DNA of 64,000 nt, from the IMG/VR virus record IMGVR_UViG_3300037484_000435, positions 192,001 through 256,000 of that record. One strand, written 5' to 3'. The notes under the pieces were generated by a model. It had not been told where the DNA came from, searched no databases, and saw nothing but the letters and a program-made list of their open reading frames with translations. The stretch is from a virus (Duplodnaviria; Caudoviricetes). A program made the translations under genes and the position numbers. Below, one piece after another: positions 14,746 through 63,868 of the stretch (position 1 is the first letter of the stretch; each line of letters starts with the position of its first letter).

Positions 14746-14758
14746 CTTTTTTTCCTTT

Positions 14759-15745
14759 TTACTTCTCGTCTTTAGTATATTGGTTCTTAAAGCAACCTCT
14801 ACGAAATAGGCCATGTTTTTCCTTTCCCCTCTTATAAATCGAATTCCATGAGCGGTTAGGTAATAGATTTAGAAGGTTTTCTTTTGAACGTCTTTCAAAA
14901 TTTTTAACAAGAAGGTCATCTTCTTCCGTGGTCCAATTTACGTAGTCAGTCCTCTCTACCACCGTTCTTCGTAACCCCAAGCAGGAAGCTTTCGACATAA
15001 GGGCGCGCCAATTTCTGTGAAATCTGGTAATTAATTCCTCTCTAGAAAGAATAGGGTACATTACCATAAAATCTTCAGTCTCAACTGTTGTCCATTCAGC
15101 CACCCTATGTCTGTTGTTCTCTATATAATTTAAGAACTTATTGTATTTACGTTCTAAATAAATAGTGGCATCTTGGTAAATATAATCAAAAAACCTTATT
15201 GCTGAAGCACCACTATACTTAATAATATAATATGTTTTTTCTGACTGAATGTTGTTACGTTTAACCCCTATATCATTAAAACTTTTTTGAATGAATAACA
15301 AAAGATCACGCGACCCACTCGTTACGCCACACCTAAGCCTGCTAGAGTTAAGAGTTAGATAAACAGTGCCATCCCCATCAAAATAACCTCTAATCCAGTG
15401 ATGGACCAAATGACTTGGTAAACCCCTTGGGGGGAGAATAGTAAAAGTCTTTCGCGGATGTAATCCATGAATAAATAATTGATTATATAAAGACTTATCG
15501 TAGACAACCAATTTCACCGTGCTTTGGCTATTCGGACGAGAGATTCTCTTATACTCATAAAGTTTTCTCCCTGGAGATATTAAATCTCTGATAATCTCAA
15601 GGTGACCTCTGTCACTTAAAGCAACCTCTATTGTTAAAAATGATCCCTTTTTTGTCGCCTGCACACAACCATCCGCAGCGATAAACCCTAAGATATACGC
15701 CTTCTCCTCAGTGTCAATAGTAGAAAAATCTAATAAATTAGTCAT
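14759..15745 (-). CDS. Free-standing LAGLIDADG endonuclease with two C-terminal Myb-like modules
   Basis: KAYILGFIAADG and HWIRGYFDGDG; WTTVETEDF... and WTTEEDDLL... modules. Confidence 0.88.
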   Translation of the reverse strand: MTNLLDFSTIDTEEKAYILGFIAADGCVQATKKGSFLTIEVALSDRGHLEIIRDLISPGRKLYEYKRISRPNSQSTVKLVVYDKSLYNQLFIHGLHPRKTFTILPPRGLPSHLVHHWIRGYFDGDGTVYLTLNSSRLRCGVTSGSRDLLLFIQKSFNDIGVKRNNIQSEKTYYIIKYSGASAIRFFDYIYQDATIYLERKYNKFLNYIENNRHRVAEWTTVETEDFMVMYPILSREELITRFHRNWRALMSKASCLGLRRTVVERTDYVNWTTEEDDLLVKNFERRSKENLLNLLPNRSWNSIYKRGKEKHGLFRRGCFKNQYTKDEK

Positions 15746-49608: not shown

Positions 49609-52600
49609 TTATTCAGGTTGATCCTCGGTTCTAAACGCCCACGTGTAGACTAACTCATTACCATCCAAGTCTTTGCAAGCCACTTCCACCTCGACGTCTT
49701 CACTATATTGCAGATACTGGCTCTGTGCCAATATTCCAACTTTTAAGTCTTCCTTAGGTATGGGCTTGGGTTTTATGTAGACTGGAAGGTCGCAAGTATA
49801 CCCAGGAGAAGACCAAAGCATATAAGACTTACTGCTTCGGGATGGTGCGAAATCATAGGTCTTCACACTAACAAAGATAGGAAACTTGGTGTTAAATTCA
49901 AATGGTGGTATTTGATTAGGAACCGCTTGGTGCCACCAGTTTAATTGCCACCCATAAAAAAGAATATATTCTTCACGGTTATAAACGTCACACGTAGGGT
50001 CATTATTGTGGGATTCCACAGTCAAGTGTACAGCCCTATTACCTATCCAATCCCAGTGGTTCCCTGGGTCCCAGTGCATCCTATGGAAATAAACATCTTC
50101 CCCAGAAGCTGTGACTCCAGTCCACGTCGTAAACCAAGCACCAGAACAAGTAAAGTTATTTACCCCATCTGTCCAAGTTATGGAGCATTCGTCCTCTACA
50201 ATATCAGTAACAGGATAATTCGAGTCAAACAGGTCTACCCAAAAATGGACACCCCTCGCCTCCATTTCATCCACACGCATAGAGTGACCAGTATGCATAA
50301 ACACATCATCGTAACGAATATTATCATTAGGTATAAAATCAAAATAATATTGCCCACTAAAAGTGTTGGGGAATTTATCATCAAATCGAGATAAGAAACC
50401 AATACTATCAGTACCTGTAATAGTAATGGTCATCCGACTTCCAAAGTAACCAATCTCCGTTGCTTCAGGAACATAGTAAGTAAACCTGCGGCCCCACGCT
50501 CCGCTCCCACTATACACGGTACCAGGCGGATATAATATCCTGTTGATACCCGCTGTGTAATCTATACCAGAAGCAGACAGCTGAATGTTTTCCCACTCTC
50601 CCGCAACTTTACCTAAATCGTCATACACCAAAGTTCCTCGGTCATCGAACCATTCGGTCATATTGTTACCACCTGACCATACGGTAATGTCATTCATCTT
50701 GATTAAGACTTCAGTCCACTTAACCCCAGAGTAATCATCTAATATTTCAAACTCAATACCTGAAGAGGGGCAAATTAATTGGTCATAAGGCAGCGGGGCT
50801 TTGGGTATAATAACCGGAGACTCTGTATCGAGCCCTACATCCACATTCACAGTAAGGTCATGTTGACCAACTACATTAAAGCTGATTATTTGGTCTAGCA
50901 TGTTAGAATAAATTAAGGTATTATTCCACGGGGCCTCTTTCTGGAAGAACATCGAATCCAAGGAACCAGAAAAGGTTGATCCACCTATGTATATACTGGT
51001 TCCAGTAGAAGTTGTTAATGGAGTAGAACCCGTAAAAACCGAGGAAAAAGACTTTGTACCATTCATATAAGTGGCTATCCAGCCATCTTTTTTAGTAATA
51101 CCTAAGTGGTTCCAACCAGCAGAAACATTAAAAGGACCACTCCTGCCAAGCAGCGTATCTCCTAGGGAAGCATTTAAATAGCTCCCTGAAAGTGATGTCA
51201 ATAAACCGAATCCCGAGGGCGGAACAAAAGATAATATGTTTCCGTCAATATACGGAGAATAGAGCCACGTATGAAATGTCCAATCACAGGTCGAGAGGTC
51301 TTGTGGCAAATTCTCTGTGAATAGTTGGCTTCCTTGGCTGAAGTTGATACTACCAGTACCATAATATTTATTTGCTGTAGATACCCTTAAACGATTAGCA
51401 TAAATATCTTGTAATTCCTCCACAAGTTCCATACTGACCACACCTATATAAATGCTATTATGGCTCGCAGTAATGTACCATCTGTAATAACGATAAGGCA
51501 TCGGGGGTGTAAAAGTGTACCATTCGCTCCAAGCCCCACCTGAAACATACACAGAACTAGAAACCGTATGCACCGTGGTCCACGTAGACCCGTCATTGCT
51601 ACCTTGAAATACCCAAGTTCTAGGCCAATCTGCATACTGAGTTCGGCTTTGTATTCGGTACTTATTAATATATTTGAAATTATTATACCCAAAATCTATG
51701 ACTGTGTAATAAGGAAAGCTGGTATTATTGTACCAAAGTGTCGTGCTGTTCTTATCGAATAGTTGCCAAGAGGGGTTACCCGCTAAATATACGTTTTCTG
51801 TTACCCTTACTCCCGATGTAGTAATGCCAGACATCGTAGGGACACAACTAACCGTTGAGCTGTTAAGGGACCCATTTTGCATCGATACAGCCCTACTAAA
51901 AACTCTATAAGCATGGGGAGATTCATCAAGAGTGTAATAACCGGACGCAGTTGCTCCTACGTTGCTGTCTATCAGAAGGCTTTCTGGACCAGATACAGGT
52001 ACATATAGAAGAACTCCAGAACTTAACGTATAAGATATTTTGAAACTCGGGGCGTCTTGAGCTTGAAATCTTAAATAGACTTGTTCTCCTGGTTGAAATC
52101 CTGATTTCAGGGCGTACTTAAACTGTGAAGTGTAGTCGGTTAATTTATCGTAATAAGCAATCCCAGAATTTTTCTCAGAGTTCAGGGCAGATACCCCATC
52201 ATAAAGCAACTCCCAAGTATCACCCCCGCTCGTCGTTGCTATACCACTAGGAGTATAATACCTAAAGTAATCAAAGTATGAATCTATCCAACCATCAATA
52301 TTCTTTACAGGAACCGCGGCATTGGTGCCTGACAGCACGGTCCCTTCTATATAGAAGTCGCGAAGCCCTAAGTCAGTAGGCATTGTATACAGACTATCTA
52401 CGTAACGATAGTACCGGTAATAATTAGGGCTAACTACATTAAAATAGAGAGTGTATGAATTTCCATACCGTGGTTGATACATTCGTGTGTCAACCGTTTC
52501 CCAAAAAATATAATCATCTGAGCCTTGCAACATAAAGTGAACAGGCCCCTGATACACATCGTTACTAAAACCATGTCCACCCGTCCAATACCCGTATCTT

Positions 52601-55600
52601 TGTATCCGCATTTTATTGCCCGAACCACAATCTATGCTAAACCACCCAGGATAGTCATTATAAAGGGCTTGAGGTGCTGCACTATTAAATCGATGAGGTA
52701 GATAATAACGAGAACCTGTATCAGAATCAAATAACCGAAAAACATTAGGGTCTATACTAGACCAAGGTGTATATGTAGTCCACGGAGACGGGGCCGCATT
52801 AGAGGTCATATAAGCTGGTTTTCGATTCCACACAGAGTCAAGGTCTAGCGTTTCCTGCAGAGTTATTAATCCAACGTTCACAATCCCTGTGGCTAGTGAA
52901 TTTCCGTGGTATCTATCCCCATCCCACTGCACTTTTCTTAATCTGGCAGATGTTCCCCAACTAAATATAGTATCAGTGCTGGTATAGTATGACAACATCG
53001 CCCCTTTCAGGGTAGTCAATCTGTAGTATTGGTAGGGTTGGGGGTTATCAATGTAAAAGTAAGTTCCAGCAGAACCAGAACCGGGGTCCAAGACCAATCC
53101 CCTATAGTCAATGGTATTCCACGTTTGGTCATCAATGCTAGCATCCAAACTTATTTGACAAGGGAATGACCGAACCATGTAATCCGAGTCCAGAGAAGCA
53201 ACTAGACGATAACGAGTCATAATTTCAGGCTGAGCAGATTTCCATTTTATCCAATGGCTAAGCCCGACCCCGCTTGCAGATTGCCAACCAGTCGATCCCA
53301 AATAGGATGCTTTCCAAGGTTCCCAGCTCGACTGATTGCTCGAAGATGTCCACGCATGACCACTAGTAGTTGTCCCAGACATGGTAATGTTTAGTTCCAC
53401 AGGAGTGCTTTGAATATTAACCCCAGACCAAGTAGTACCATCTAATGACCAGTAAGCCCTGTAATAAGGCATAGTTGGTTTTCGTTGTACCTTTAACCAA
53501 ACCCAATTTCCCTCAGTAAATCCGATTCCGCTGTAGGTAGTCTGGCTTAAAAAATCCAGCTTCGTATGGTCCCGCGCACAAATTCCAGAAGCATTAGCAA
53601 GAACCTGAATATATTGGGAACTATCACTTTGGTCAAATACTATCAGACCTGAACTTTGGGAGCTACGGGGCCCATTACCGAATATCTTGACTTTTGTGGA
53701 AATCTCCCAATCATCTTGTGTAATCCCGGGCCAGTACATTAGTGGGGCAGATTGTTGTGTGGAATCCCAAATGCCGCTTGACGTCGTTACCTGCAGTGTG
53801 TTTGTACCATCTACATTACAAGATGGATTACAGTGGAAAGAACCTATCCTCATGGTCTCAAGTGAGATATCTAGACCCGAAGTAGTTAAAGTTTGATGCA
53901 CCCCCGATAGAGTAGCAGAGAAGTCAAGGTCCACCGTACTAGTAAACCCCTTGTTAATCTTGAACGCAGAGCTATTGTTAAGATTTTTAATAGACCATTG
54001 AACTGGTATAGAGGGTGTGGTTGATGTTTTTAAATCAGCCTCATAAAAACTAAAATTGTCCATATATACATAGGAATTGTAACCCATATCCCGCCGTTTT
54101 ATCCACAGACGAGAATCACTACTTCTAAACAAGCTTCCATAATCACGTAAAGTGTAAATCAGAGCATTCGAAGCTGTCCAATCTAGGTCAGCATCTACCA
54201 TACGAGTATTATTCGCAGGGGACTCTGTGTATATCTGCGGGGATTGAAAATCGTAAGTTTGTTCTCGGAATTCCGCGGTTAACGTGTTGGTGGGTATCAA
54301 CAAATTATAGGATTCTAAAGACATTGTCCTAGGTATCTGTATTTCCCATAAATCAAATCTATTTGCCCCTAGGGCATATACCGAGATTTGTTCCATCACC
54401 AAGCATTGGCACCTACTATCCGTTCCAGTAGCGGCGGTCATACATCCAAAACAGCCCATTTGATTAGCCAGCCAACCACTGGAACACCTAGCAATATTCA
54501 CTACAACAGGGTTAATCTCCCACGCAACTACAGATAAATCTCTCTGTATTCGGTAACTTATGCTCTGGAATTTTATTTCTAGTGAGCTCGGGCTAGCACA
54601 TTGGTACTGCCCATAATAATAGAAGGCTAAGTCCTTCTGAATACTGCGGGAAGCGATAGAACCAGAAATACTAATCAGGTCCTCATAAACATTTACATTA
54701 GAAGACTTGTAACCTTCTGTACATAACCATTGTACTTGTGAAACCTTATTTATTAATTTTAGACTTTCTTCCGCCGTCAACCACCGTGACCAATGAGAGA
54801 CTTCATCCAAAACAAATGCCCCACTAGTCGTAGGCGGTAAACCGTTATCAAAATAACTAACACCACTGCTAGTTAAAAAAGTAGACCCGATAGTGTTACC
54901 AGACCCTACCGTTAAGCCCCTTTCTTGTTGTGCATTTACCCACCAACAGTAATCCCCGTTTGACTTAACCCCAGCTTGCAGGAGATACCAAGTATTGGAA
55001 TCCCAGTCATGCGTAGCCGTTCCATAAGCCAATCCGTCTCGTTTGGTCTCCAACCATATTCTCCCGTCGTCACGTGGGCCGACCGCACCAGACACACCAG
55101 TTTCATTATAGGAAACAACAAATCTACCAGGCTCCTCCAAGTCACCTAACTCTGGGGGCTTCTTACCTTTGGTGAAGGCAACATAGTCGAATTGTACTTC
55201 AGGAGAAGCCCCTAAGGTATTACGACTTTGTAAACCAAAAGCCATATTACTCCCCCACAAAGATACATCCACTTCATAGATGGTATCTTGCCAACCAGCA
55301 GTAGAGGGGTCCCAAAACTTAAACTTAATTAAGTTATCTTTTTTTAACATCCTAAGTTTGTAATCGGTTGCGGTGGTAGGACCAGTAATATCCTCACGAG
55401 CTGTATAGGAGAACGTGCTAGTTTGAACAAGAACATCAAGATTGCCGGGCTCATAAACAGAGGAGGCCAATTCTATCTCTCCTATCCAAACATAAGTATT
55501 AGAGGAAACAGCAGTAGTTTTTAATCTGTAATGGGTATAATTTCCCGGTGTATCTATATCAAACCAAGCCGTCCACGTCCCAGTTCCTGGGCGGGAAATA

Positions 55601-57228
55601 CCTACTTGAAAATCGACCTGCGCCCAATGAGACTCATTACTTATACTGGGACTGGAAACTGTGTTACCGTAGAGAGTGAAATCTTTGGGAAATCCACTGG
55701 TATCAGTAGTATTGGGGCTTCTTAATCGATACCTAGTTATGTTATAAGCAGAAGAGCCAAACCCATAAACAATAGATTGTGGTAATCCACTAGCGGTTAA
55801 TGAGCACCAACCATAGGCGTCATTCACATGATCGAAAGCCTTATACGCTGGGTAACCCACATTATATATAGTGGTGGCTTCGACCGTGAAAGGGCTCGGG
55901 GCAGTATTAGAAGTCATCGCTACGGTCTGGTCCGTATCCGCTGAGGCCCCACCAGTATTTTTAAATTGAATTGAGGCGTAATTTAGGTAGGAACTAAGGT
56001 TGAAAAATATAATTCCCGCTGCCTGACCATCCGAGAGGGTACTCAAACGAAATTTAGTCTCAATCTCCCAATCGGTATTTTTAGGTATTTTGAAATAAAG
56101 AGTAGAAGCCGTCCATGTACCCCCAAACCAGTTAGTACTGGGGTTACCCTTTAACCTGAGGTTAGTTACATCGCTTGGAAGGGAATACACCACCTTAATG
56201 GCCCCATTAATAGTAGCACTAGACAACAATTGGTTAGTCCCTGTTACATTACCAGCCGCGTAATACGCGGTCCCAGTGGTTATCCCGTTTGTCATATTTG
56301 CTGTGATGTAAAGTCCCAAATAGTAGGTATCGGACGTAGGAACGACATAAGGAGTAGACAAAGTAAAAGTTTGTGCTCCTCCCCCCGCATGAGAGAAGGT
56401 TTCTATATTAACAATATCGTATCTATTGGAACCTAAACTTTTACAACTCTTCCATGTTATGGTTGTTGCAGTAGTGGAATAAGCAGTGATAGTTAAGATG
56501 GTGGAACCAGGAACTAAAGAATAGGCTAACTCAACTATGGTATTATTTCCACCCCAATAAGAACTACCAGCAGAGGAGGTCCCTAAGAATAACGGATCCG
56601 AGGCCTTACATATTTGTGTATTGTTGAGTAAGTACCAACCCTTATACGGAGAATAGGCAGTATAATCCCAATAGGTTGCAAAATTATCACCGCAAAACGG
56701 GTCGGAAGATAGAATTCTAAAACTTTGGCTATTACCAGAAGTTAATGTATTTGATGGTTTAAACCAAAAGGCACACATATATTCCGTAAGCCCAGACGGC
56801 ATCGTGGGAACATGAACATAACCATTGGGGCCCTCAGCTACAGCACACCCATACCCACGCTTAGCAAGTGCTGGAACTGTACCATGGTTGATCGCGTAGT
56901 AATTATTGTTGGACCAATCATCAAAGTAATCCCCCGTCTCAGCAAACGTGTGCCAAGCTATAAGATCGCCCTTTAAATCCAGAGGACTTAATCCAATAGC
57001 CTCTCCTACATCTTGTGTATAGACCATAAGATTGCTATCAACATAATTACCATCACACAGCGAGTAAATCCCGCTAGGCAGAATTATATCAGCACATACA
57101 TATGAACCACTCAGGGAGGGTAAAATATAAGAGTATGAGTAGTTTACATAGTGACTCCCAGAAACGAGAGTAGTACCTGATAAGGTGGTACCAGATGCTG
57201 TTATAACTCCGCTTACGGTCAAACTCAT
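49609..57228 (-). CDS. 2539-aa multi-lectin adhesin/tail-fibre-like protein (LamG, ConA-like, four F5/8C discoidin-like domains, C-terminal Ig-like)
   Basis: MTSNTAPSP..AYKAFD, WPRTWVFQGSNDGSTWTTV..YRYYRWYIT (F5/8C); WNHLGITKKDG..YMNG..FSGSLD (LamG); ESPVII..IEFEILDDYSG (Ig-like). Confidence 0.75.
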   Translation of the reverse strand: MSLTVSGVITASGTTLSGTTLVSGSHYVNYSYSYILPSLSGSYVCADIILPSGIYSLCDGNYVDSNLMVYTQDVGEAIGLSPLDLKGDLIAWHTFAETGDYFDDWSNNNYYAINHGTVPALAKRGYGCAVAEGPNGYVHVPTMPSGLTEYMCAFWFKPSNTLTSGNSQSFRILSSDPFCGDNFATYWDYTAYSPYKGWYLLNNTQICKASDPLFLGTSSAGSSYWGGNNTIVELAYSLVPGSTILTITAYSTTATTITWKSCKSLGSNRYDIVNIETFSHAGGGAQTFTLSTPYVVPTSDTYYLGLYITANMTNGITTGTAYYAAGNVTGTNQLLSSATINGAIKVVYSLPSDVTNLRLKGNPSTNWFGGTWTASTLYFKIPKNTDWEIETKFRLSTLSDGQAAGIIFFNLSSYLNYASIQFKNTGGASADTDQTVAMTSNTAPSPFTVEATTIYNVGYPAYKAFDHVNDAYGWCSLTASGLPQSIVYGFGSSAYNITRYRLRSPNTTDTSGFPKDFTLYGNTVSSPSISNESHWAQVDFQVGISRPGTGTWTAWFDIDTPGNYTHYRLKTTAVSSNTYVWIGEIELASSVYEPGNLDVLVQTSTFSYTAREDITGPTTATDYKLRMLKKDNLIKFKFWDPSTAGWQDTIYEVDVSLWGSNMAFGLQSRNTLGASPEVQFDYVAFTKGKKPPELGDLEEPGRFVVSYNETGVSGAVGPRDDGRIWLETKRDGLAYGTATHDWDSNTWYLLQAGVKSNGDYCWWVNAQQERGLTVGSGNTIGSTFLTSSGVSYFDNGLPPTTSGAFVLDEVSHWSRWLTAEESLKLINKVSQVQWLCTEGYKSSNVNVYEDLISISGSIASRSIQKDLAFYYYGQYQCASPSSLEIKFQSISYRIQRDLSVVAWEINPVVVNIARCSSGWLANQMGCFGCMTAATGTDSRCQCLVMEQISVYALGANRFDLWEIQIPRTMSLESYNLLIPTNTLTAEFREQTYDFQSPQIYTESPANNTRMVDADLDWTASNALIYTLRDYGSLFRSSDSRLWIKRRDMGYNSYVYMDNFSFYEADLKTSTTPSIPVQWSIKNLNNSSAFKINKGFTSTVDLDFSATLSGVHQTLTTSGLDISLETMRIGSFHCNPSCNVDGTNTLQVTTSSGIWDSTQQSAPLMYWPGITQDDWEISTKVKIFGNGPRSSQSSGLIVFDQSDSSQYIQVLANASGICARDHTKLDFLSQTTYSGIGFTEGNWVWLKVQRKPTMPYYRAYWSLDGTTWSGVNIQSTPVELNITMSGTTTSGHAWTSSSNQSSWEPWKASYLGSTGWQSASGVGLSHWIKWKSAQPEIMTRYRLVASLDSDYMVRSFPCQISLDASIDDQTWNTIDYRGLVLDPGSGSAGTYFYIDNPQPYQYYRLTTLKGAMLSYYTSTDTIFSWGTSARLRKVQWDGDRYHGNSLATGIVNVGLITLQETLDLDSVWNRKPAYMTSNAAPSPWTTYTPWSSIDPNVFRLFDSDTGSRYYLPHRFNSAAPQALYNDYPGWFSIDCGSGNKMRIQRYGYWTGGHGFSNDVYQGPVHFMLQGSDDYIFWETVDTRMYQPRYGNSYTLYFNVVSPNYYRYYRYVDSLYTMPTDLGLRDFYIEGTVLSGTNAAVPVKNIDGWIDSYFDYFRYYTPSGIATTSGGDTWELLYDGVSALNSEKNSGIAYYDKLTDYTSQFKYALKSGFQPGEQVYLRFQAQDAPSFKISYTLSSGVLLYVPVSGPESLLIDSNVGATASGYYTLDESPHAYRVFSRAVSMQNGSLNSSTVSCVPTMSGITTSGVRVTENVYLAGNPSWQLFDKNSTTLWYNNTSFPYYTVIDFGYNNFKYINKYRIQSRTQYADWPRTWVFQGSNDGSTWTTVHTVSSSVYVSGGAWSEWYTFTPPMPYRYYRWYITASHNSIYIGVVSMELVEELQDIYANRLRVSTANKYYGTGSINFSQGSQLFTENLPQDLSTCDWTFHTWLYSPYIDGNILSFVPPSGFGLLTSLSGSYLNASLGDTLLGRSGPFNVSAGWNHLGITKKDGWIATYMNGTKSFSSVFTGSTPLTTSTGTSIYIGGSTFSGSLDSMFFQKEAPWNNTLIYSNMLDQIISFNVVGQHDLTVNVDVGLDTESPVIIPKAPLPYDQLICPSSGIEFEILDDYSGVKWTEVLIKMNDITVWSGGNNMTEWFDDRGTLVYDDLGKVAGEWENIQLSASGIDYTAGINRILYPPGTVYSGSGAWGRRFTYYVPEATEIGYFGSRMTITITGTDSIGFLSRFDDKFPNTFSGQYYFDFIPNDNIRYDDVFMHTGHSMRVDEMEARGVHFWVDLFDSNYPVTDIVEDECSITWTDGVNNFTCSGAWFTTWTGVTASGEDVYFHRMHWDPGNHWDWIGNRAVHLTVESHNNDPTCDVYNREEYILFYGWQLNWWHQAVPNQIPPFEFNTKFPIFVSVKTYDFAPSRSSKSYMLWSSPGYTCDLPVYIKPKPIPKEDLKVGILAQSQYLQYSEDVEVEVACKDLDGNELVYTWAFRTEDQPE

Positions 57229-57230
57229 TA

Positions 57231-58433
57231 TTAAATCTCATTCACAACTACGGCCACATTACTGATACCAACATTAGCTCCTGTCGTAAATACTGTTTGG
57301 GCTGTTCCAGTTTCATCAGTATAATCCCAAGTTGGATTAACTCCGCCGTCACCACTTGACACCCAGAACTGAACCAATTTACCTGATAAAGTAGTGCCCC
57401 AGCAATTAGCAACAACCGCTATAATGTCTGCTTGGGCCCCAATACCTGCGGGCATAACTGTATCTGAGGAGTTCACGTTCAAAAAAGCAGCCAAACTATC
57501 ATCAATATTGAACACACCTAAGTAGGCTGTTGCATTGTTTGCCCTGTATTCTGTAGTTATACCGCTTGCACTATTAACACCAGTCACTGTTGCTGAAGTA
57601 TAAGAATAGGGTTTGATAATATGTAGAGAATCATAATCCAGTTGATTGAGGAATAGGGGTTCCCTACAATAGGCGTAATCAGGTACATTTAGCATCGACC
57701 ACCGGTCAGAAACATAAGCCATAGTTGAAGCATCTATTGATCGAAGGTACAGTGCGTCAAGTGACGTGTCATACCAACTATATAAGAGGTAACCAGAGCC
57801 AGTTACTCCCGGCTGGAATGCTAAATTCCTACATCCAACACCGTTACCATAATGAAAAGAATTTGTAGTTTTTGGGACCGACGAACTCACAGAGGCCCAA
57901 GCACCCGTTAGACCTTCTCTAAACTTGTAGAGATTAGAACCAACCTTTACAAATATATCAGTATCGGTCGCAGCTATTCCTACATACCCACTAGTTACTG
58001 CCGTGTACCAATTGGCCCATTGCCCGTCGGCATCAAAACCAGAAATCAACAATTCGGGGTTAGCCCCGTCTGGCCCACACTTATATATGTTGTAGGTATT
58101 TCCAGATACTAAACTCGCATCCATGGTAATGTAGGCAAACTTCTGTTCGTCGTCAATCCACGTGATGTCAAGAATATTCTTATAAGGAATACCACCCGAG
58201 CCAATTGTAAACTGAGCAGCTTCGGTACCATCCATATTCCAATACTTGATTGAGGCTGTAGGAGTTCCCCCCGCAGACCCATCTCTGTGTTGAACACGAA
58301 TTATTTGTTGTTTATTGTGTATGACCCTGTGTGAATAGTAAAAGTAACCAGACCCAGTGGTTCCAATCATCCCTGAATAGAACCCTGGAAAGTTCTTCTG
58401 TAGGTCATAATAATTAATTCTTCCTACCTGCAT
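57231..58433 (-). CDS. Putative virion protein with C-terminal Big-1 (invasin-type) Ig domain
   Basis: IIAVVANCWGTTLSGKLVQFWV...YTDETGTAQTVFTTG. Confidence 0.7.
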   Translation of the reverse strand: MQVGRINYYDLQKNFPGFYSGMIGTTGSGYFYYSHRVIHNKQQIIRVQHRDGSAGGTPTASIKYWNMDGTEAAQFTIGSGGIPYKNILDITWIDDEQKFAYITMDASLVSGNTYNIYKCGPDGANPELLISGFDADGQWANWYTAVTSGYVGIAATDTDIFVKVGSNLYKFREGLTGAWASVSSSVPKTTNSFHYGNGVGCRNLAFQPGVTGSGYLLYSWYDTSLDALYLRSIDASTMAYVSDRWSMLNVPDYAYCREPLFLNQLDYDSLHIIKPYSYTSATVTGVNSASGITTEYRANNATAYLGVFNIDDSLAAFLNVNSSDTVMPAGIGAQADIIAVVANCWGTTLSGKLVQFWVSSGDGGVNPTWDYTDETGTAQTVFTTGANVGISNVAVVVNEI

Positions 58434-58450
58434 AATATTTAACCCTCCTC

Positions 58451-60433
58451 TTATTTAAACCGATATATCTTTGGATATGTAGACGGAATATATTTCTTCT
58501 GGTCTACTGTAAATACTAGGGAACTCAAATTAATACCTCCCCCACGACCATATACATCTACTTGGATATCATCCTTTAGATGGACTGGAAAAGTTCCACA
58601 ACTAGGCGATGCATTCATTATGATGGGCACCTCAGATTCCCCCGTTTGGAATGACCAAATAGCATATCCTCGATTTTGTGCACTGGAACGATCAGCCACA
58701 GTAGCAAAACACTCTACTGTAGAATTATAATAAAACGGATAGGGAGGTGTATAAATCACTTGGTACCAATTATCACTGTACTTATAGATATCTGGGATAA
58801 CTACTAGGTTGTTCACAGTAAAAGTTAATGTACTTATATCTATACCTAAGCCCTCGTCTTGTATTTCGAATCTTATCCAGTGCCTATGGTCCACATTAGT
58901 CATGCCATTATAAGGATACATGTTAAATATCTCAGGGGGATAAAAGTCATCTACAATATCAAACCAGTAGTTTAACTCTAAAGGATAATCAGTGTAGGTA
59001 TATTGGATGGTGTCCCCCTCCAAATACTCATAAGTTGTTGGTTCTACCAGTAATGTATCTACCCCCACAATAGCTAGCAGTTCTCGGGATTCACTTTCCC
59101 CTCCTGGATTCGGCCCCAACTCTAACATACCACCTGGTTGGAACATTGAGAGATCGCCATCGACCTGTATATATCGTGTATCTACAGATGCACTAGCCGC
59201 AAATGTCCTAGTCAGGGTTGGGGAGGCTGAAACATAGACATAAACCCACACCCTGCTATTTAATGGAAAATCTTGTGGCGGATTATAGAACAATTCGGCC
59301 CCACCTGGTATAAGAGTTATTTGAACTTGGTCAGTTACCTCCACCCCATTAACCTTATAGACCAATGTAGACCAGTTCATGGGGATAGAGGGATTAGATA
59401 ATCTTTGCCATATGTTTGTATAGGGTGGATTTCTTATAGAATAGGGGGTAGGAACTGCCCACGGAATAGGAATAAAAGTTTCTATTACTGTGAAGGTCTC
59501 AAGCCCACCTTTTACTCCAACCGAGAGTTCTGTCCCTTTACCTCCGCTTTGAGTGGTATACCCAGCGATTTCATAATCACCAGAACCTCCTGGAACAGGA
59601 ATATCAATGGTTTTCTTTACTTCAGAATCTTTATAGGTAATTGGGTCTCCGTTAAGAAATGTGTAATCCATTGGAGTTATCTGTAATCTATCGCTTCCTA
59701 AAATAGACACGACTGTCGACACACCCGAAGCTCCTTGTATGTTAGGCCCAAAATATAGGGTCGCCCCGACATCCATTACATCAGTAGTCAAATAAAATCC
59801 TGTAGTACCACTAGAGTTAGTATCGATCCACGGCATAGTCATTGTTAAGGTTGTTGTCCCGCTCGTCAAAGTACCGTAGACTTTTAAATCTGAATTTTCA
59901 TAGTATGCAATTGGGCTGGAAATAGTTAAATGACTTTCGTATTCGGGGAGCGTCCTAACAATAAAGTACCCACCAGGATTACAAATACCTGGAAGGGAGG
60001 GGTCTTCAAACAAAAAATAAGCGAAGTTTAAACCGTAAAAAACTGCACAATTTGGCTTACCACCCTCCGACCCCACATCCAAATATTCGGAAAGATGTTG
60101 TGCAATATAATTTCTTTCCTCATCAGTTAAATGTGGTAAAGCACCTTTCATCAAAGGAATACTAATGTTAGCGTCCCCGCTACCAGAAGCGGTAGCTGAA
60201 TCTTTATAGGGTGAGCCATAATGTCGAACAAAAATATCTACAGAAGAGTCTAAGGGACCACCCACAACAGCAATTCTGCCAAGAGCATCCGTACGGTACC
60301 AATCGTACAGACCATTATTATCTGGGTCCAACCATAATTGTTGAGTTCCCCACGTGTGGCCCCACTGATAAGTGTAAATATTTAGGTAGGAGCTACGTGA
60401 GCTAGCTCCTACCAACAGTGTGCTTTTTTGCAT
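58451..60433 (-). CDS. Putative virion protein with two complete and one truncated Ig-like domain
   Basis: PPEIFNMYP..IRFEIQDEGLGIDISTLTFTVN..WSFQTG; last copy ends after about four strands. Confidence 0.7.
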   Translation of the reverse strand: MQKSTLLVGASSRSSYLNIYTYQWGHTWGTQQLWLDPDNNGLYDWYRTDALGRIAVVGGPLDSSVDIFVRHYGSPYKDSATASGSGDANISIPLMKGALPHLTDEERNYIAQHLSEYLDVGSEGGKPNCAVFYGLNFAYFLFEDPSLPGICNPGGYFIVRTLPEYESHLTISSPIAYYENSDLKVYGTLTSGTTTLTMTMPWIDTNSSGTTGFYLTTDVMDVGATLYFGPNIQGASGVSTVVSILGSDRLQITPMDYTFLNGDPITYKDSEVKKTIDIPVPGGSGDYEIAGYTTQSGGKGTELSVGVKGGLETFTVIETFIPIPWAVPTPYSIRNPPYTNIWQRLSNPSIPMNWSTLVYKVNGVEVTDQVQITLIPGGAELFYNPPQDFPLNSRVWVYVYVSASPTLTRTFAASASVDTRYIQVDGDLSMFQPGGMLELGPNPGGESESRELLAIVGVDTLLVEPTTYEYLEGDTIQYTYTDYPLELNYWFDIVDDFYPPEIFNMYPYNGMTNVDHRHWIRFEIQDEGLGIDISTLTFTVNNLVVIPDIYKYSDNWYQVIYTPPYPFYYNSTVECFATVADRSSAQNRGYAIWSFQTGESEVPIIMNASPSCGTFPVHLKDDIQVDVYGRGGGINLSSLVFTVDQKKYIPSTYPKIYRFK

Positions 60434-61977
60434 TACGGTTGCACTATAGCTAAGACGGTAATCAAACCTGCCTTAGTACCAGCCCTCCATTCTATTACTG
60501 CTTGCCCCTTTCGTGCTGGGGGTCCCCCCGGATAGGACGACTGGCTTCCAGTAATTATTTCGGCCTGTGCGTGCGGCGTACCATCAAGCCAAGTAAAGGA
60601 ACCTTCAACACACTCAGATATATCTTCAGGACAAAGGAAATAACCCTTAGTTTGAGTATCAGTCGCACTGAGGCCAAACACTACACGTTTGTAATTCAAC
60701 GCGGCCCCATACTGGTCTCGCACAGTAGCATAAATCAACGCCTTGTCGACACCGTTGGCCACGACTAATGCCGGTTCAGCAGTAAGTGCTATTGATGTAA
60801 CCATGGGCTTCATGACGGAAACTACGTAGTTATAGGGTCCAGAAGAGAAACTACCTTCGATCGCACCATAAGTATACCCAGTTTGTAATCTGTAGATGTT
60901 TACAGTTTTACACTCTGTTGGGTGCACTGAAGAAGCCAAATCATAAATAGACCAAAGAGTAACTCTATCATTCTTAATAGCATTATCCATAATCATCGAA
61001 GCCATATTTTCTCGGAACTCTATATTACTACCAACGTAATCAAACCCAGTAGTAATCACACCATCGGCGTTGGGACCTGGATAATTGAATCCCCCGCCCG
61101 GCATATTGGGCCGTTTTAACAAAAGTTGTTGTCCACGTACATAGGCAATCAATCCTGTGTAATAACCTTGATTTATGCCGTCAAGCCCTGAAGCCGTAAT
61201 AAAAGTTGCGGCTTGTGTCTGCTCATACATGCCGCTATCATGGCAACCTTTATAAGTTAATTCATTGAGAGCTGTTGGGTCTGCCGCAGTAATATGAGGT
61301 ATGGCATACCAATATACCGCCGCACTGGCGTCACCCAAAGAGGGAGATGCGTTGTTAAAAAAATAAAGGTCTCTACGCAGATTAACTGGGTCTCCAGGAT
61401 AGTAAACTCTTTGAATCGGTTGAGCAGTAGTCACTGTATAGTTGTTGAGGATGGTCGCCACTGGGACATCTTCTTCGTACCCTTGAGTAGCTGAACGCAA
61501 ATGAAACTGGTCTGTAACATGGAAGAAAGATGAATGAGGATGTGTTAATTTAATCCGGTCGAGATTACTTGTTCCAGGACCGCAAGCTTCACTTAAAATA
61601 TTATAGTAATTCTCTATCGCGAAAGCCTTACCATTAATATTTTCCGAAATTCCTTGTGCCCTTAATCTCCAAGAGTCCTTCAGAACACACATAAAACTCT
61701 CGATTCTCCAACGACGGAGAATTCTTTCCTTCTCTAAATTACCACTCACATTCCTCTTCTCAAGTGACCAGAAGTTTATACCGTCATACTGCAAGGACAA
61801 AAAAGATGTCCCTGCACTAGAAAGATTAATCTCGTGACTGAAAGGGTAAGTCATAACGGGGTCACCGTAACTCGTCTTCTGGATTAACATGTTTGTAGGT
61901 GCTGGTTTCATAATATAGAAATAATCTCCAGCAGCACAGAATCCAGGCGTATCCGCTCGTATGTTTTCGTAAGCCAT
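60433..61977 (-). CDS. Putative virion protein, propeller-like N-terminus and C-terminal Big-1 Ig domain
   Basis: SLQYDGINFWSL, LRRWRI; IYATVRDQYGAAL..VVF. Confidence 0.7.
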   Translation of the reverse strand: MAYENIRADTPGFCAAGDYFYIMKPAPTNMLIQKTSYGDPVMTYPFSHEINLSSAGTSFLSLQYDGINFWSLEKRNVSGNLEKERILRRWRIESFMCVLKDSWRLRAQGISENINGKAFAIENYYNILSEACGPGTSNLDRIKLTHPHSSFFHVTDQFHLRSATQGYEEDVPVATILNNYTVTTAQPIQRVYYPGDPVNLRRDLYFFNNASPSLGDASAAVYWYAIPHITAADPTALNELTYKGCHDSGMYEQTQAATFITASGLDGINQGYYTGLIAYVRGQQLLLKRPNMPGGGFNYPGPNADGVITTGFDYVGSNIEFRENMASMIMDNAIKNDRVTLWSIYDLASSVHPTECKTVNIYRLQTGYTYGAIEGSFSSGPYNYVVSVMKPMVTSIALTAEPALVVANGVDKALIYATVRDQYGAALNYKRVVFGLSATDTQTKGYFLCPEDISECVEGSFTWLDGTPHAQAEIITGSQSSYPGGPPARKGQAVIEWRAGTKAGLITVLAIVQP

Positions 61978-61986
61978 ATTTCCTCC

Positions 61987-63354
61987 TTAAAATGTTGTTG
62001 TCATTGCTGTAATATACGTGGGGAATGGAATCGTACCAGCACCACTAAATGTTGCATATGCTATCCCACTAGCATTCGTCATCGTGCCTGTCGCTGTAAT
62101 AAACTGCCCTGCGTTTGTGGGAGATACACTCCAGTATATGGGTACATCCCTAATCGGAAATCGATAATCATCTAGGACTGTGCAACTACACGCTACCAAC
62201 CCACTGGGTAAAATAAATTGCGGCTCGACGCTCACAACCATGAAAGAGGCTTGGGCCTCTAACTTGTGTGTTACATAATTAAATGCTGGCCATGTTGCAA
62301 CACTGGTTTCATGTGATTCTCGGTAATCACGCTGTAACATAAAAAACTGCGGGTGATTGTTGATATCTTCAGGGTCATCATTTCTCACCCGTAATTCATG
62401 GATAGGTAAAAATGTATTCCCACCCGTATAATAATTCAACGGAATAGACTGGGCCGTCACGTACAAATCCAGAGTAGTTACATTGAGACAATAAACTGCA
62501 TAACCAGCAACAAAGAATAAGGATTGCGTTCTATTACCTATATTGATTGCCGGAACATTCTTTACAACACTAAAAGCAGCGGTAGTCACATTTTGGTATA
62601 TAGCGTCTTGTCTACTCTGAATCACCTGATAATTAATTGGGTCTATTTCTGATAATGTCCCGCCCGAATCAAATACGTAAATCCTAGTCTCTATAAAACA
62701 ATTATGACCCGCCACATAACTCGTATTGAAGTTAGTAGAAAAGTCTATCTCATATCTTATGACTGGCCATCTAGGGTCATCAGGAATTGTCCTGATATCT
62801 GTTATGATTCCCTCATAAATTTCATCTTGAATGTTGGGCCCTATTTTTACTTGTTGGCCAATCCTCAATCTCTCAATTAAGTAACCGTAATTTGGGTGAA
62901 TCCTCGCGGTATACTTTGAAGGGTCAATTCCCTCATTAAGCGGAAAATTATAATACTCTATGGCCACAGCAGTAGGTTTAGAGAATCCAGGATATGTAGC
63001 AAACCCAACACACTCGAAACCATATTGACTACTATTTATCCTCCATTTCCGTAAAGCTATTCCTGGGTAGTAAGGGGTATCGTTAATTGCTTGCACAGAC
63101 CAAAAGTACTCCCCATCGTAATCGAGACTTTCTGCCCGAGTTTGCAATTCTATCATGGTAGGATAAGCAGTTAATGGAATATTTCCATTATCGTAACGCA
63201 CTAAAAGGAAATTCTCATAACCCCCAAAACCTACTTGGCCTCCTGGGGGAGGGTTAGTCTGATAGCCTCCAAAAATCAAGTTATAAAACTTAAGTTCGTG
63301 GTTAGACAAAAACATAGCCATGTTGGGCTCTATCAATCTAACGTTCTGATCCAT
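61987..63354 (-). CDS. Putative virion protein, paralog of 60433-61977
   Basis: SLDYDGEYFWSV, LRKWRI; CTVLDDYRFPIRDVPIYWSV..TNASGIAYATF. Confidence 0.7.
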   Translation of the reverse strand: MDQNVRLIEPNMAMFLSNHELKFYNLIFGGYQTNPPPGGQVGFGGYENFLLVRYDNGNIPLTAYPTMIELQTRAESLDYDGEYFWSVQAINDTPYYPGIALRKWRINSSQYGFECVGFATYPGFSKPTAVAIEYYNFPLNEGIDPSKYTARIHPNYGYLIERLRIGQQVKIGPNIQDEIYEGIITDIRTIPDDPRWPVIRYEIDFSTNFNTSYVAGHNCFIETRIYVFDSGGTLSEIDPINYQVIQSRQDAIYQNVTTAAFSVVKNVPAINIGNRTQSLFFVAGYAVYCLNVTTLDLYVTAQSIPLNYYTGGNTFLPIHELRVRNDDPEDINNHPQFFMLQRDYRESHETSVATWPAFNYVTHKLEAQASFMVVSVEPQFILPSGLVACSCTVLDDYRFPIRDVPIYWSVSPTNAGQFITATGTMTNASGIAYATFSGAGTIPFPTYITAMTTTF

Positions 63355-63868
63355 TTGCGAAGTCCTCGTTTACAGCAGATTGGTATCTAGTACCGGGCGT
63401 TATATACACAGAACAAGAGCTGATATCCCCTTTAATAGTCACCTGGTCAGTTAAGTCGAATCCTTTAACTTTTACTTTTATACTACTAATATCTAAGCCA
63501 GAAGATGGTAATTGTTCTCCGATATTTACCACAATTTCCGAATCCACAGGAATTCCTGTATCGTTCTGCATAGGCCAGTGACTTGTAATTTCAGGTGGAG
63601 TAGTGTCTGGTTCATAAGTCCAGTTTACCTTCTTACACAAAGTATCGATAAGCTCGTTAACATCATCTGAGAATGTGGTTTGATTAGACGTCCACTTGTA
63701 TGTAGGTGCTATAGGATTCCCATCAGCATCCAACTCTTTAGTTGATGCTTGAATAGCCCACATCTGTGTGCCTGTGCCATCTTGCGTTACTATAACTCTC
63801 TTAATCGTAACCATAATACCAACCCTTTGAGAAGGGTCTCTAAGGTTCTGGACAAATACCTCAGCCAT
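63338..63868 (-). CDS. Small putative virion protein with C-terminally truncated Ig-like domain
   Basis: Start MAEVFV (GAGGAG SD); DTTPPEITSHWP..SEIVVNI..GLDISSIKVKVKG. Confidence 0.7.
   Translation of the reverse strand: MAEVFVQNLRDPSQRVGIMVTIKRVIVTQDGTGTQMWAIQASTKELDADGNPIAPTYKWTSNQTTFSDDVNELIDTLCKKVNWTYEPDTTPPEITSHWPMQNDTGIPVDSEIVVNIGEQLPSSGLDISSIKVKVKGFDLTDQVTIKGDISSCSVYITPGTRYQSAVNEDFANGSER

Follow-up and report, generated by a model that had tools for sequence, protein, structure and literature searches.

We describe three nearby genes of an uncultured tailed phage (Duplodnaviria; Caudoviricetes) whose products end in fragments of immunoglobulin-like (Ig-like) domains that, in homology coordinates, complement each other strand for strand. 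The genes lie in a 64,000-nucleotide (nt) stretch, hereafter the window, taken from a virus record of 545,322 bp that is rated complete (IMGVR_UViG_3300037484_000435), where it spans bases 192001-256000, and they encode a tail-region protein of 660 amino acids (aa), a small protein of 176 aa and a giant lectin-array adhesin of 2539 aa. We propose that the adhesin ends in a double plug formed by its last 115 residues. Strands E, F and G of a half domain, H, at the end of the 660-aa protein would come from a first segment, G3, and strands F and G of a truncated domain, S, at the end of the small protein from the hairpin of a second segment, G4, so that two complete beta-sandwiches would be rebuilt from three chains. 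The conserved C-terminus would thereby anchor a variable lectin-array adhesin onto conserved tail or baseplate proteins. Physical completion, the pairing of plugs with sockets and the tail location of the complex are what we infer from the patterns described below, and we put the chance that at least one of the proposed inter-chain completions is real at a little under even.

The 660-aa protein (P0001; 58451..60433; like all genes of the region, on the minus strand) carries Ig-like domains, among them a complete Big_5-like domain, T (residues 497-598; 58640..58945), which served as our template and aligns over its full length with single repeats of P0080, a protein with 12 Big_5 domains. It is followed by a truncated copy, H, of 62 residues (599-660; 58454..58639), which contains strands A to C'/D only. 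In profile-profile comparison H matched T at positions 4-57 and nowhere else (E 5e-6), and a hidden Markov model (HMM) of T also matched H, at positions 4-54. An earlier model-made reading of the same DNA, which we call the original prediction, had described this last copy as a front half, and the comparison confirms it; the peptides it quoted were likewise all present on the minus strand at their coordinates. H closes with a conserved motif, P-K/R-I/L/V-Y/L-R, and two further residues before the C-terminus, and at the 3' end of the gene TAA is followed by the ribosome-binding site GAGGAGG and the ATG of the next gene. Elsewhere in this protein, the first Ig-like domain (58946-59461, residues ~325-496) seems to hold a small beta-domain insert between strands F and G, and a similar insert-like unit lies at residues ~205-270, giving a nested domain architecture.

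The small protein (63338..63868, minus strand) begins with MAEVF at the ATG at 63868, ends on a TAG stop and overlaps the 455-aa gene by 17 nt. Its residues 88-176 (63341..63607) form the truncated Big_5 domain S. Pfam Big_5 (PF13205) matched residues 88-163 at 23.8 bits, against a gathering cut-off of 23.6, and several homologs of the small protein have the same precomputed match. S covers positions 1-74 of the 105 in the profile and does not amount to a complete seven-strand domain. The original prediction had this copy stop after strand E; that it is cut short stands, and the strand count is corrected in that it is the conserved core which ends after E, at the motif TPGTK. The residues past TPGTK vary in sequence and length and are absent from distant homologs.

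The giant adhesin (P0003; 49609..57228, minus strand) matches a PHROG tail protein and comprises F5/8 type C and ConA-like domains, two complete Ig-like domains and the 115-residue terminal module. Within the module, G3 (residues 2425-2476; 49801..49956) consists of an E-like stretch and an F-G hairpin (49813-49887), and G4 (residues 2477-2539; 49612..49800) of two short DLxV-type stretches and a canonical Big_5 F-G hairpin (49630-49698), after which the protein continues for six residues. When a module alignment of 37 sequences was compared with T, the match to T spanned positions 60-102 for G3 (E 3.5e-4) and 68-102 for the G4 hairpin (E 1.8e-4), both weak and in the right register. Over its last ~35 positions, the module also resembles the F-G end of canonical Big_5 repeats, as in P0080 and P0097. 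The two orphan segments thus correspond to the back halves that H and S lack, as had been proposed. Pfam applied to the isolated fragments returned a weak PKD match for G4 and nothing else. A tail-profile search of 1.84 billion representative proteins found the whole module at the C-terminus of other proteins. The DLxV-type stretches between the hairpins (49700-49800) read CDLPVYI and EDLKVGI and are predicted by AlphaFold2 as coil, with a predicted local distance difference test score (pLDDT) of 61-68. The entry for the giant in the public protein collection (P0029) has 2472 aa, whereas translation from the first ATG gives 2539 aa, so that the start of the gene is uncertain by 67 codons (57027-57228).

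Laying all pieces on one ruler, a single repeat of P0080 (residues 604-708), makes the complementarity explicit. T occupies residues 609-704 of this repeat; H occupies 606-654, with 12 further residues of its own; S extends from residue 604 as far as about 673; and the remaining 674-708 fall to the G4 hairpin. The same succession occurs in the natural Big_5 repeats of P0090, P0098 and P0116, where the G4 profile (positions 27-59) comes straight after the S profile (2-78), the two overlapping by 3-5 residues. In homology coordinates and as judged by sequence profiles, S and G4 together thus amount to one Big_5 domain, and H and G3 to one T-type domain. The pairing of the 660-aa half with the E-F-G segment and of the small-protein half with the last F-G hairpin, put forward in the original prediction, agrees with this homology. 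Furthermore, segments of the T/H, S, G3 and G4 types are confined to these three proteins across the 545-kb genome.

The ends of the three proteins are conserved well beyond the window. In an HMM scan of 16 related loci and the window, H, S and G3+G4 were found at the extreme C-terminus wherever the DNA covers them, on contigs that span 7.6 to 545 kb, and the stops of the corresponding genes vary among loci between TAA, TAG and TGA. All 22 homologs of the 660-aa protein (40-91% identity) carry the terminal motif ...YPKIYR.., and an 873-aa relative at 31% identity has the same end point. In the 21 small-protein homologs, the C-terminus lies no more than a few residues from TPGTKYQSA, an end also kept in loci L010 and L021-L023. 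The giant has 24 homologs of 1851-2824 aa, which have in common a C-terminal 460 aa at 43-82% identity and all end just past the last hairpin; a conserved end combined with varying total length fits a conserved anchor with a variable payload. Conservation of the truncation points and of the tail, a check suggested with the original prediction, held in 22, 21 and 24 homologs of the 660-aa, small and giant proteins, respectively, so that the pattern exceeds what chance would give.

This conservation extends to distant relatives. Locus L010, on a 256-kb contig, has its layout in common with the window, and five more distant loci (L019-L023; contigs of 47-296 kb), reached through module carriers of ~630 aa, again show the same layout: in each, an H-ending protein is followed by one or two genes and then by a module-ending protein. 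The module of ~115 aa is always C-terminal, on carriers of 331-2824 aa, and because the same layout recurs in distant loci on differing carriers, we treat it as a discrete C-terminal unit. Even at about 20-30% identity the ends persist, and their terminal motifs are invariant. H is found together with G3+G4 in each of the lineages sampled; the small protein occurs in the window lineage, L010, L012, L016 and L021-L023. Two further features of these loci were recorded. In L011 (2436-4784) and L019/L020 (3047-5449 in L019), the C-terminal part that resembles the 660-aa protein follows, within one chain, a longer, propeller-like N-terminal region (782-801 aa). In L010, the gene next after that of the plug-bearing adhesin encodes a 311-aa LAGLIDADG-type protein (14747-15682; faint Pfam match), where the window has no more than a 53-nt spacer.

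Structure prediction shows the module as two hairpins of good local confidence that are not packed into a compact fold. For the last 260 residues of the giant (24 sequences), AlphaFold2 returned a pLDDT of 74-88 for the preceding Ig-like domain and of 52-70 for the last 110 residues. When run by itself, with 37 sequences that included distant ones, the 115-residue module reached a mean pLDDT of 77 and a predicted template modelling score (pTM) of 0.35, and comprised two hairpins only (residues 24-48 and 87-109; local pLDDT about 80-89, with 83-89 for the G3 hairpin), the remainder being coil. The module is accordingly predicted to have no self-contained fold, in keeping with the supposition of the original prediction that the orphan segments do not pack within their own chain. 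Since intertwined homo-oligomers would look alike, the monomer runs merely fail to support intramolecular packing. Closure of the tail by orphan strands further upstream in the giant was also considered and rejected: the upstream Ig-like pair and the LamG-like end look complete by eye, and AlphaFold2 packs nothing confidently onto the tail. Complex prediction with residues 490-660 of the 660-aa protein, residues 84-176 of the small protein and the last 260 residues of the giant as partner gave scores of 0.54, 0.29 and 0.84 in three runs, with 0.00 in two partner-replaced controls and 0.58 in a chain-1-replaced control; we count these scores neither for nor against binding. Sequence-profile searches against every chain in the PDB (alignments A1, A2 and A5) yielded no relevant match, BppU and BppA included, and look-alikes in the ESM Atlas offered generic Big_5 leads only.

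Several observations weigh against inter-chain completion by the giant's terminal module. G3 resembles the back half of T only faintly (hhalign probability 37%). The hairpin motif of G4 has a second, weaker likeness, to the B-C hairpin of PKD-like repeats, and G4 has an E-like stretch of its own, which would be redundant with strand E of S. A single-chain, fused form of the split domains was not found among the 210 retrieved proteins and 22 loci. L011 and L019/L020 keep G3+G4, yet have no small protein at the syntenic position. The original prediction had three proteins clip together through two orthogonal split-Ig pairs. Its strand sets did prove complementary, conserved and co-occurring, but the loci that lack the small protein argue against a strict code. 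Given the two lineages with G4 but no small protein, and the E-like stretch in G4, we consider the strict scheme, in which G3 pairs with H and G4 with S and each plug knows its own socket, unlikely.

The most serious alternative, which we regard as possible but doubtful, is that the pieces are completed in some other way: by swapped self-pairs of H or of S, by a homo-oligomeric hairpin tip on the giant, or by N-terminal strands of the translationally coupled 400-aa and 455-aa neighbours. Local hairpins with a low pTM are also what monomer runs give for intertwined, homo-oligomeric fibre tips, although globular lectin and Ig domains follow one another along the giant and trimeric fibre repeats were not detected in it. 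The N-termini of both neighbours are conserved between the window and the distant L010 (MD.N.R.IEPNM in the 455-like protein, M.VG.I..Y.L.K.F in the 400-like protein) and are thus alternative candidate donors, and the small gene overlaps the 455-aa gene; however, a lone N-terminal strand cannot stand in for two or three missing strands. The lineages with G4 but without the small protein would fit such a solution as well. On the other side, the missing and orphan halves tile exactly in homology coordinates, and H occurs together with G3+G4 in all lineages sampled, both of which favour completion by the terminal module.

It is also conceivable, and in our view quite improbable, that these are eroded domains, kept as stable small beta elements or flexible tails for spacing or surface docking, with no fold completed between chains. 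Nested and rearranged domains are frequent in these proteins, as in the insert of the first Ig domain of the 660-aa protein. Nonetheless, half Ig sandwiches expose a hydrophobic core and are seldom stable by themselves. Moreover, the segments are always the very last residues of their proteins, and their conservation to about 20-30% identity with invariant terminal motifs is hard to square with erosion.

That the truncations are artefacts of an assembly error or a frameshift, or are bypassed by TAG readthrough, is extremely improbable, because all three ends are conserved in related loci. The genome does encode a tRNA with anticodon CTA (G000:C1:47126-47202; amber-suppressor-like; labelled Pyl by ARAGORN), and readthrough of the TAG in the small gene would add 11 residues ending in the strand-like GYVFV before a TAA (63299-63354). 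However, homologs of the small protein end on TAA or TGA at slightly different places and have no conserved extension, so that readthrough was rejected, and the 660-aa gene ends on TAA, ahead of its neighbour's ribosome-binding site and ATG. Sequencing or assembly error and a frameshift into the next gene were rejected as well, since the same ends are kept in more than 20 independent assemblies with differing stops and overlap lengths; for the frameshift, this rests on conservation of the ends and not on a slippery-site search. Sequencing errors, which the original prediction had named as a possible refutation, therefore do not account for the stops, and code 11 gives unbroken long open reading frames (ORFs) throughout the region. 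Neighbouring long ORFs are split by a single TAG in 29 cases, against 17 for TGA and 57 for TAA, so that TAG is not clearly in excess under code 11.

The record has 42% GC and 40 tRNA genes, and the genes of the region are uninterrupted as long ORFs under code 11, in the order 176, 455, 514, 660, 400 and 2539 aa, then 543, 214, 110 and 3403 aa. The 455-aa (61987-63354), 514-aa (60433-61977) and 400-aa (57231-58433) proteins, also encoded on the minus strand, each have a complete C-terminal Big_1-like domain, and the first two have short N-terminal motifs in common by eye. In the window, the 400-aa gene separates the 660-aa gene from that of the giant. All lineages examined have a 400-like gene at this place, between the 660-like gene and the one that bears the plug, so its product is probably a member of the same complex. 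Pfam and PHROG scans of nine neighbouring proteins returned Ig-like and lectin-type domains only, with no chaperone or usher genes. A PHROG search gave nothing for the 660-aa protein or the small protein, and tblastn against GenBank phages gave zero matches, indicating no relatives in any cultured phage there.

The principle of strand complementation is already known from a phage and from pili; the proposed arrangement of two plugs and two sockets with several strands each would be a variant of it. In the Lactococcus phage Tuc2009, BppU has a C-terminal hairpin of 25 residues that completes a beta-sheet in domain 2 of BppA, and the resulting composite is similar to an Ig domain of titin (Legrand et al. 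2016, PMC4742702). This corrects the view in the original prediction that nothing alike was recognised in phages. Tuc2009 is the closest known case: the C-terminal hairpin of one baseplate protein completes an Ig-like domain of a carbohydrate-binding one, thereby attaching the latter protein to the tail, and here a tail protein likewise has a C-terminal beta-hairpin, as predicted by AlphaFold2, and a candidate partner has an Ig-like domain without those strands, as judged by sequence profiles. However, Tuc2009 has one hairpin and one socket, whereas here two candidate plugs sit on one chain and two truncated domains on two others. Unlike in Tuc2009, one socket here lacks three strands (E-F-G), and the plug is on the giant adhesin itself. 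Tuc2009 was solved structurally, whereas the present system is known from sequence and prediction, and there is no sequence relationship between them. A literature search, including full text, on strand complementation in phage baseplates found no description of the present system.

Chaperone-usher pili (Fim, Pap and Caf1) are built on a related principle, in that an incomplete Ig-like fold is completed by a strand of another chain, giving very stable non-covalent links (PMC6615685). In those pili only the G strand is missing, whereas the conserved core of S lacks F and G, and H lacks E, F and G. The donor there is the N-terminal extension of the next subunit, and the candidate donors here are in the C-terminal 115 residues of the giant. 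Chaperone-usher assembly also depends on a periplasmic chaperone and an usher and produces a polymer; in our locus neither is encoded, assembly would be cytoplasmic and no polymer is expected. Type V pili of Bacteroidota (FimA/Mfa1) use C-terminal strands to fill the groove of the next subunit by protease-mediated strand exchange; they require lipoprotein processing and proteolysis and form homopolymers, features of which none was seen here. Finally, man-made systems such as SpyTag/SpyCatcher (from CnaB2) and split GFP divide a beta-sandwich or barrel into one large piece and a short strand or hairpin, which then reassemble. SpyTag forms an isopeptide bond, whereas nothing here points to a covalent bond.

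In summary, our analysis points to a tail module in which truncated Ig-like domains on two proteins may be completed by the C-terminus of a third. For annotation, such a completion would mean that Ig domains cut short at the ends of proteins from phage tail modules need not be errors and may serve a function. If the proposed completion is true, the small natural parts, with sockets of about 60-90 residues and plugs of 25-50, might provide a non-covalent protein connector pair, and the single solved phage example, Tuc2009, would be extended to a widespread multi-strand, two-socket arrangement. A constant C-terminal plug would then carry a variable payload of exchangeable adhesins, which would explain how huge uncultured phages mount giant, fast-evolving lectin-array adhesins on a conserved tail scaffold.

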